A stretch of 427 nucleotides of DNA, from NCBI RefSeq assembly GCF_003334765.1, contig NZ_QOWT01000125.1, one strand, 5' to 3'. Made by a program: the position numbers and the translations under genes. Position 1 is the first letter of the stretch, and each line of letters begins with the position of its first letter. This DNA comes from Escherichia coli. Its GTDB lineage: Bacteria; Pseudomonadota; Gammaproteobacteria; Enterobacterales; Enterobacteriaceae. Under the pieces are notes generated by a model. It did not search any database. It saw only the letters and a list, made by a program, of their open reading frames with translations, and had not been told where the DNA came from. Shown in pieces: positions 1-427 of this stretch.

Positions 1-427
1 ACTGCGGGCGTAAACACGCATAAAGGCAGCATTTTTTCTTTAGGGCTGCTATGTGCGGCAATTGGCCGTTTGCTTCAGCTCAACCAGCCGGTAACGCCAA
101 CAACCGTATGTTCTACGGCGGCAAGTTTCTGCCGTGGCCTGACCGATCGTGAACTGCGTACCAATAATTCACAACTGACGGCAGGTCAACGGTTGTACCA
201 GCAGCTAGGCCTTACCGGCGCACGCGGTGAAGCCGAAGCGGGTTATCCACTGGTGATCAACCACGCCTTGCCGCATTACCTCACTCTGCTGGATCAGGGA
301 TTAGATCCTGAACTGGCATTGCTCGATACCTTGCTCCTACTGATGGCTACCAACGGCGATACCAACGTTGCATCGCGCGGTGGCGAGGGGGGCCTGCGCT
401 GGCTACAGCGCGAGGCGCAAACATTAT
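1..427 (+). CDS. citG: Internal fragment (5' and 3' partial) of triphosphoribosyl-dephospho-CoA synthase CitG, which makes the precursor of the citrate lyase acyl-carrier-protein prosthetic group. Reading frame 1; the last base (427) is the first base of an incomplete codon.
   Basis: Seen in sequence: frame 1 is open for 142 codons with no stop, while + frames 2 and 3 have stops at 11-13 (taa) and 21-23 (taa); minus-strand frames traced from the 3' end are broken by stops within about 50 codons. The translation carries motifs I recall as typical of the CitG/MdcB family: NTHKG (nt 13-27), [11 protein letters not shown] (nt 217-249) and the glycine-rich [15 protein letters not shown] (nt 349-393). 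From memory, the whole peptide matches the middle of E. coli CitG; I could not verify this by search. Neither the start nor the stop codon is in the window. Confidence 0.9.

Follow-up and report, generated by a model that had tools for sequence, protein, structure and literature searches.

It is very probable that the run of six guanines (G6) at positions 387-392 of the window, the 427-nucleotide stretch of Escherichia coli DNA that was analyzed here at its full length, is a functionless by-product of codon choice at GAG-GGG-GGC, and that the rare variants in its length are a mixture of sequencing miscalls and slippage alleles. The gene is a known one, the run is a known kind of sequence feature, and its behavior is as expected; there is nothing new in it biologically.

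The window (1-427, + strand) is an internal fragment of citG that corresponds to codons 106-247 of the gene, and frame 1 is open through all 142 of its codons. It carries the allele of an accessory second cit cluster and not that of the canonical locus. The G6 run (+ strand) lies in the segment that encodes RGGEGG (376-393, + strand; CGC GGT GGC GAG GGG GGC for R231, G232, G233, E234, G235, and G236) and is made up of the last base of GAG (385-387), the whole of GGG (388-390), and the first two bases of GGC (391-393), the codons for E234-G235-G236. The window contains one other run of at least four bases, TTTTTT (T6) at 32-37 on the + strand, which extends across ATT TTT TCT (31-39) and encodes I-F-S. 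The positions, codons, and intact frame are as the earlier note had given them. When the window was shuffled by mononucleotides, 12% of the shuffles had a G-run of at least six and 29% had a run of any base of that length or more; shuffling by codons gave 7% and 11%, respectively. Neither the G6 nor the T6 run is above chance (for a G-run of at least six, P is about 0.07-0.12). An Rfam search of the window returned one chance-level miRNA match (E = 0.86), and a repeat scan of the window found one 12-nt repeat pair of each kind and no inverted repeat adjoining the run. The possibility of a G-quadruplex or regulatory element was set aside, since the window has a single long G-tract and this lies in the middle of a gene.

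The identification of the gene as citG, which the earlier note had made from the letters, is borne out by curated protein models. The translation of the fragment matches the CitG equivalog models NCBIfam NF007503 (E = 6e-91) and TIGR03125. Full-length CitG of the window allele, encoded at 8686-9570 of the accessory locus (L001), scores 641.1 bits with NF007503 (cutoff 477) and 361.8 bits with TIGR03125 (cutoff 272.3), and Pfam CitG (PF01874) matches residues 26-290 of this protein with E = 5.4e-84. Both C-terminal motifs of CitG, R-G-G-x-x-G-L-x-W and LSPGG.ADLL, are present in the window allele, and the gene order expected for CitG, citC-citD-citE-citF-citX-citG, is found at the accessory locus as well as at locus L002. 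By membership in these models, the window gene is citG, with triphosphoribosyl-dephospho-CoA synthase as its predicted product, an enzyme that would make 2'-(5''-triphosphoribosyl)-3'-dephospho-CoA from ATP and 3'-dephospho-CoA. A search of PDB sequences with full-length CitG, which might have shown where in a structure the RGGEGG segment lies, gave zero matches.

A search of 5,426 complete E. coli genomes gave a single match of 100% identity to the window, at NZ_CP007592.1 4982538-4982964, inside a second cit cluster that is carried by the O157:H16 strain Santai. The canonical citG of K-12 shares 97.7% nucleotide identity with the window and keeps both G6 and T6. On sequence identity, the window is assigned to the accessory second copy and not to canonical citG. 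The K-12 gene (b0613, in the citCDEFXG operon) is of the same family, has the same operon order, and carries G6 and T6 at the same codons as the window allele; unlike the K-12 gene, the window allele is flanked upstream by a GntR regulator, a lactonase-like hydrolase, and an MFS transporter, and downstream by an acnB paralogue.

The reason for the existence of the run is best seen by comparison with other species. Contigs representing one genome per species were searched with a degenerate DNA pattern for DTNVASRGG, and of the 64 loci that it matched, 63 are citG; since the sample was chosen on DTNVASRGG, the invariance of R-G-G within it is by construction, and only the downstream residues are informative. 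The motif R-G-G-x-x-G-L-x-W is found in 63/63 of these Enterobacterales sequences. Within it, E234 and G235 are the variable pair, with the commonest residue reaching only 41% and 37%, respectively, while G236, L237, and W239 are invariant. At this site, G6 is absent from all 61 other Enterobacterales citG sequences (about 60 other species), and the longest run there is five. The site reads GAG AGT GGC in E. albertii, GAA GGG GGC in the cryptic Escherichia MOD1-EC7003, GAG GGA GGC in another species representative that bears the name 'E. coli', and mostly GCA GAA GGT in Citrobacter, as it does in a Citrobacter-like allele on an IncHI1A plasmid in E. coli. Synonymous or non-synonymous changes thus break the run even inside Escherichia. 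Given the variability of the encoded residues and the absence of the run elsewhere, G6 is taken to be an E. coli-specific accident of codon choice and not a conserved switch. Two of the three encoded residues (E234 and G235) are at freely variable positions of the CitG family and, because of this, the run very probably arose by ordinary substitution in the E. coli lineage and has been kept neutrally.

The consequences of a change in tract length follow from its place in the gene. The tract occupies nucleotides 702-707 of the 888 in the gene, or codons 234-236 out of a total of 295 (292 in K-12), and so a frameshift hits the last ~20% of CitG (56-59 residues), that is, the last fifth rather than the C-terminal third that had been anticipated in the earlier note. 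In this part of CitG, motif conservation is highest downstream of the tract, at FD..CI.R.LSPGG.ADLLI.TW, and both R-G-G-x-x-G-L-x-W and LSPGG.ADLL are at least 90% conserved in the 63 sequences. All frameshift products lose FD..CI.R.LSPGG.ADLLI.TW and acquire unrelated tails, for total lengths of 247-298 aa. Judging from the loss of these conserved motifs, frameshifted CitG is presumably inactive.

The length of the tract was surveyed in complete genomes using 69-77-nt segments that were centered on it and contained G5, G6, or G7. All 5,467 citG copies in the 5,422 complete E. coli genomes that bear citG were matched. The tract is G6 in 5,457/5,467 copies (99.8%), 3,489 records having identical 76-nt flanks and the other G6 copies carrying a flank SNP. 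The ten length variants (0.18%) comprise four G7 records (A13, A29, A2, and Nord8), five G5 records (95-3192, RM8843-C1, 14EC007, ECO12, and NCTC9022), and one G4 record (201609); these counts are lower bounds, as the ranking of matches may hide variants with extra flank SNPs, and a shorter-flank query for such hidden length variants turned up none. Furthermore, RefSeq drops assemblies with many frameshifts, which biases the variant rate in complete genomes downward. The same query design applied to the T6 tract matched 5,019 copies, with T5 in none of them and T7 in one (strain A39). The G6 tract is therefore about nine times more variable than T6 (10/5,467 versus 1/5,019, p = 0.012) and to that extent departs from an average 6-mer, although runs of G:C are known to be more prone to indels. 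The citG tract is also the sole G6 within the surrounding 40 kb.

These results bear on the remaining claims of the earlier note in different ways. The view that a six-base run is mildly prone to both slippage and miscalls stands, since the rate is low (10/5,467) and both causes were met, but the same caution does not carry over to T6. The comparison of tract length over E. coli citG alleles that had been proposed was carried out, with the expectation that a tract invariant across strains and free of frameshifted alleles would indicate ordinary Gly codon usage. Frameshifted alleles are present in public data, in the form of the ten variants and of frameshift products on hundreds of contigs, and the tract is therefore not wholly invariant there; the description of the run as an ordinary Gly codon homopolymer nonetheless holds.

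The alternative that survives best, although it is unlikely, holds that the tract is invariant in real populations and that every public G4, G5, or G7 is a sequencing or assembly error. Much of the evidence for this view comes from the 40 kb around citG, which were aligned for the ten variant assemblies and seven G6 controls. Other homopolymer indels or frameshifted core genes lie near most of the variant tracts in complete genomes. Other private indels in runs of at least four bases were found in 6/10 variant assemblies versus 0/7 controls (Fisher one-sided p = 0.017), and other frameshifted CDS in 6/10 versus 1/7 (p = 0.13), a difference that is suggestive but not significant. The count of private homopolymer indels is the more discriminating proxy for error when compared to frameshift pseudogene flags. 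The 40 kb of 201609 contain 48 private 1-2-bp indels, of which 47 are deletions, and 17 of its 42 CDS, the essential mrdA among them, are flagged as frameshifted. In A29 there are 9-11 private insertions, and six more CDS besides citG are frameshifted. A2 has three private insertions, each in a run of at least five bases and one of them in the adjacent A5G5 tract of citG, and ECO12 has two to three private deletions.

The direction of the indels likewise follows the sequencing project: those of the 'A-series' are all insertions, while those of 201609, ECO12, and locus L093 are deletions. A13 and A29, which are 1,301 SNPs apart and come from one sequencing project, have in common an extra one-base insertion in the C5 run of citX. 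The citX gene that carries this insertion is at about 18807-19360 in loci L003 and L005, and A2 and A39 of the same series likewise carry insertions; these observations point to a systematic insertion bias in the A-series 'complete' genomes of RefSeq. Taken together, the private homopolymer indels point to most of the variant complete genomes being consensus errors. The resemblance to the consensus errors of 454, PacBio, and Nanopore sequencing is close, as these also are one-base errors at runs of at least five, have a direction bias by project, and are accompanied by frameshifted core genes, as at citG.

Three observations on neighboring genes were made in the course of this comparison. In the O157 strain AR-0430 (L101 14989-16046, NZ_CP044140.1), a G6 control, citC is flagged as frameshifted in an assembly that is otherwise clean, which could be a lineage pseudogene or an error. 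A frameshifted or truncated ybeF pseudogene is present at the same place (about 5864-6388) in three B2-type genomes, A13 (L003), Nord8 (L007), and NCTC9022 (L011), and looks like a real, lineage-specific pseudogene and not an error. Nord8 also carries an ISEcp1-blaCTX-M-14-IS903B unit within ybdM (L007 30614-35489), about 10 kb downstream of the cit operon.

Error does not account equally well for all of the variants. The clonal O145:H28 strains 95-3192 and RM8843-C1 have 0 SNPs between them over 40 kb and a common G5, and RM13514, three SNPs from this pair, has G6. The pair was deposited by two different submitters, and RM8843-C1 has no other private indel in the 40 kb, which argues against a purely artefactual origin. 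The O145:H28 pair look like the best candidate for a genuine inherited frameshift in the complete-genome set. The division between artefact and true mutation is an estimate from assemblies, with the reality of individual variants being inferred.

The exact predicted products of G-tract frameshifts were also looked up in a collection of 15 billion proteins. Every predicted product is present, on hundreds of contigs in all: the K-12-allele G5 product on 250 contigs, the K-12-allele G7 product on 111, the B2-allele G5 product on 124 (in addition to several smaller entries), and the O145 G5 and accessory-copy G5 products on two each. The intact alleles, by comparison, are on 1,000 or more contigs and on 461, the latter being the intact accessory CitG. 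Index entries for the K-12-type G7 product are spread over 110 of the collection's blocks, which correspond to about 110 SRA runs, and the three loci that were read have the tract at the same position on clean, short-read-sized contigs of about 55.7 kb, with neighbors that are all intact and 0 other indels in 6.8 kb. The K-12-allele G5 product occurs in 22 assemblies of one DDBJ series, and the locus, shown for 21 of the 22, is that of K-12 over 6.8 kb save for the single G. Both the G5 and G7 of K-12 type look like real mutations fixed in laboratory lineages, and the recurrence of the G7 in more than 100 runs, on contigs that are otherwise clean and resemble short-read assemblies, does not fit consensus error. 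The third-party accession HAN8177177.1 also bears the G5 product, which likewise speaks against error as the sole cause.

The B2-allele G5 product, in contrast, supports the artefact reading. Nearly all of its contigs are from one ENA run series, and 7/10 of the loci inspected have additional, non-shared indels and split neighboring genes, a pattern that is the signature of error-prone reads. G5 in the accessory copy was seen in two assemblies, only one of which is clean; four additional homopolymer deletions are present in its counterpart. A second homopolymer pair, AAAAAGGGGG (A5G5), is located 44 nt downstream of the G6 tract at citG nucleotides 746-755 (L001 9431-9440), about 4-13 nt past the end of the window. 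This pair also shows length errors in public data; A2, for example, has G6 there. The Citrobacter-like citG allele has its own G6 at this second (AAAAAGGGGG) site instead. Several database proteins (P0017, P0018, P0022, and P0026) are the product of a double frameshift, first at the G6 tract and then at A5G5, which is typical of a noisy consensus.

Published work is consistent with both sources of variation. The indel rate of E. coli climbs exponentially with run length (PMC8510543), and long-read errors are mainly homopolymer indels (PMC12007338). One candidate lesion listed in a 454 study of K-12 falls in citG, at an unspecified tract, and was put down there to homopolymer error (PMC3045373), a precedent that favors the artefact reading. 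A search of the literature on citG frameshifts or phase variation returned only this 454 note and papers on the LTEE in which 'rnk-citG' is used as the name of a duplication; nothing on the tract itself turned up. The mixed origin preferred here would operate as follows. Replication slippage of one G in either direction would give rise to rare true frameshift alleles that lack the conserved C-terminal fifth and are presumably CitG-null, and these null alleles would arise in a gene that is dispensable outside of anaerobic citrate co-fermentation. Homopolymer miscalling by chemistries of the 454, PacBio, and Nanopore type would create false frameshifts in assemblies and, in certain of these chemistries, miscalls would be more frequent than true slippage alleles.

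It is quite improbable that the citG G6 is instead a genuine, recurrent loss-of-function hot spot that is exploited by selection. If this were true, the O145:H28 clone, at least two K-12 laboratory lineages, and possibly B2 clinical clones would silence the activation of citrate lyase by the same G slip, and the tract, for all its shortness and lack of conservation, would in effect serve anaerobic citrate metabolism as a mutational switch. One of the closest known parallels to the tract as such is provided by the indel hot spots in coding homopolymers of E. coli known from the mutation-accumulation literature of the Foster laboratory, which likewise involve one-base indels in runs, a length-dependent rate, and a loss-of-function frameshift (PMC8510543). 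In contrast to those hot spots, the figures for citG are frequencies in public assemblies, which are contaminated by sequencing error, and are not rates.

Less probable still, and very improbable in itself, is the possibility that the tract is a contingency locus, in which it would act as a phase-variation switch that reversibly turns the CitG-dependent activation of citrate lyase off and on. It is true that six or more allelic backgrounds show length variants independently of one another, and variation is commoner than at the T6 tract. Furthermore, citG is dispensable under most laboratory conditions. The tract also shares with the poly-G/poly-C contingency loci of Neisseria, Haemophilus, Campylobacter, and Helicobacter an in-frame G-run in which a one-base change switches the product off. 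The differences from those loci are greater, however. With 99.8% of copies at G6, the tract lacks high-frequency length polymorphism and is almost invariant, and six bases are fewer than the tract lengths typical of phase-variable genes. It is missing from sister species and lies on non-conserved residues, so that it has not been maintained across species. Over half of the complete-genome variants look like errors, a pattern by lineage or niche is absent, and CitG is a cytoplasmic metabolic enzyme, neither a surface nor a restriction-modification gene product.

The idea that the run drives programmed ribosomal frameshifting or transcriptional slippage into an alternative C-terminus has the presence of a homopolymer in its favor and nothing further, and it is next to impossible given that GAG GGG GGC in frame is not an X XXY YYZ heptamer, that the alternative frames are unrelated, allele-dependent stretches of 45-62 codons (products of 247, 280, 282, 295, and 298 aa) and not a functional extension, and that the run is conserved in no other species. 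The Rfam search and repeat scan of the window likewise showed nothing in its favor.

The accessory cluster in which the window lies merits description in its own right. It lies within positions 1-13400 of L001 (NZ_CP007592.1 4973538-4986900) and is composed of, in order, an ISEc38 transposase; a GntR (HutC-like) regulator; a lactonase-like hydrolase of the Amidohydro_2 type, for which the top NCBIfam match is 4-sulfomuconolactone hydrolase, under the curated cutoff; an MFS transporter; citCDEFXG, which is 97.9% identical to the native operon across L001 4348-9554; an acnB paralogue that is about 97% identical to E. coli acnB; and IS66 remnants. The cluster has neither dpiAB nor citT. The module of the GntR regulator, hydrolase, and MFS transporter is present in 33/5,426 complete genomes, is chromosomal in every one, and is at least 99% identical. 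A plasmid origin of the cluster was considered and rejected, as the matches in the plasmid collection are mislabelled chromosome-sized records, native cit or acnB sequences, or an 81%-identical Citrobacter-like block. A block of this last kind is complete (dpiBA-citCDEFXGT-rna) on a conjugative IncHI1A plasmid of an E. coli isolate (L014, NZ_LR890350.1 100656-111862), where it shares about 81% nucleotide identity with E. coli; the whole citrate-fermentation locus has therefore been mobilized on a plasmid in that case.

Homology between the native and accessory copies ends 19 nt before the stop codon of citG (L001 9554-9573), just past the 3' end of the window. As a result of this break, accessory CitG ends in …ASLTGR (295 aa) and not in …AQI (292 aa). 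At window positions 348-350, the accessory allele has GCT ACC (Ala-Thr), as do B2-type native alleles (compared with L002, L003, L007, and L011), and directly downstream it is of K-12 type, with TTGCAAAAAGGG instead of TTAAACAATGGG. This arrangement suggests a mosaic or recombinant origin for the accessory citG allele. A literature search on the accessory island (citCDEFXG and acnB) found nothing relevant. The island may serve in the catabolism of a tricarboxylate lactone: the putative lactonase would open the ring, and the product, once isomerized to citrate by AcnB, would be cleaved by citrate lyase. The accessory cit-acnB island is of greater interest than the homopolymer.

For the homopolymer itself, the practical meaning is that annotation pipelines will occasionally call a frameshifted or truncated CitG at nucleotides 702-707 of citG. 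Calls of 'frameshifted citG' need read-level checks before they are used to claim gene loss, whether in studies of citrate metabolism, in pseudogene counts, or in experimental evolution.
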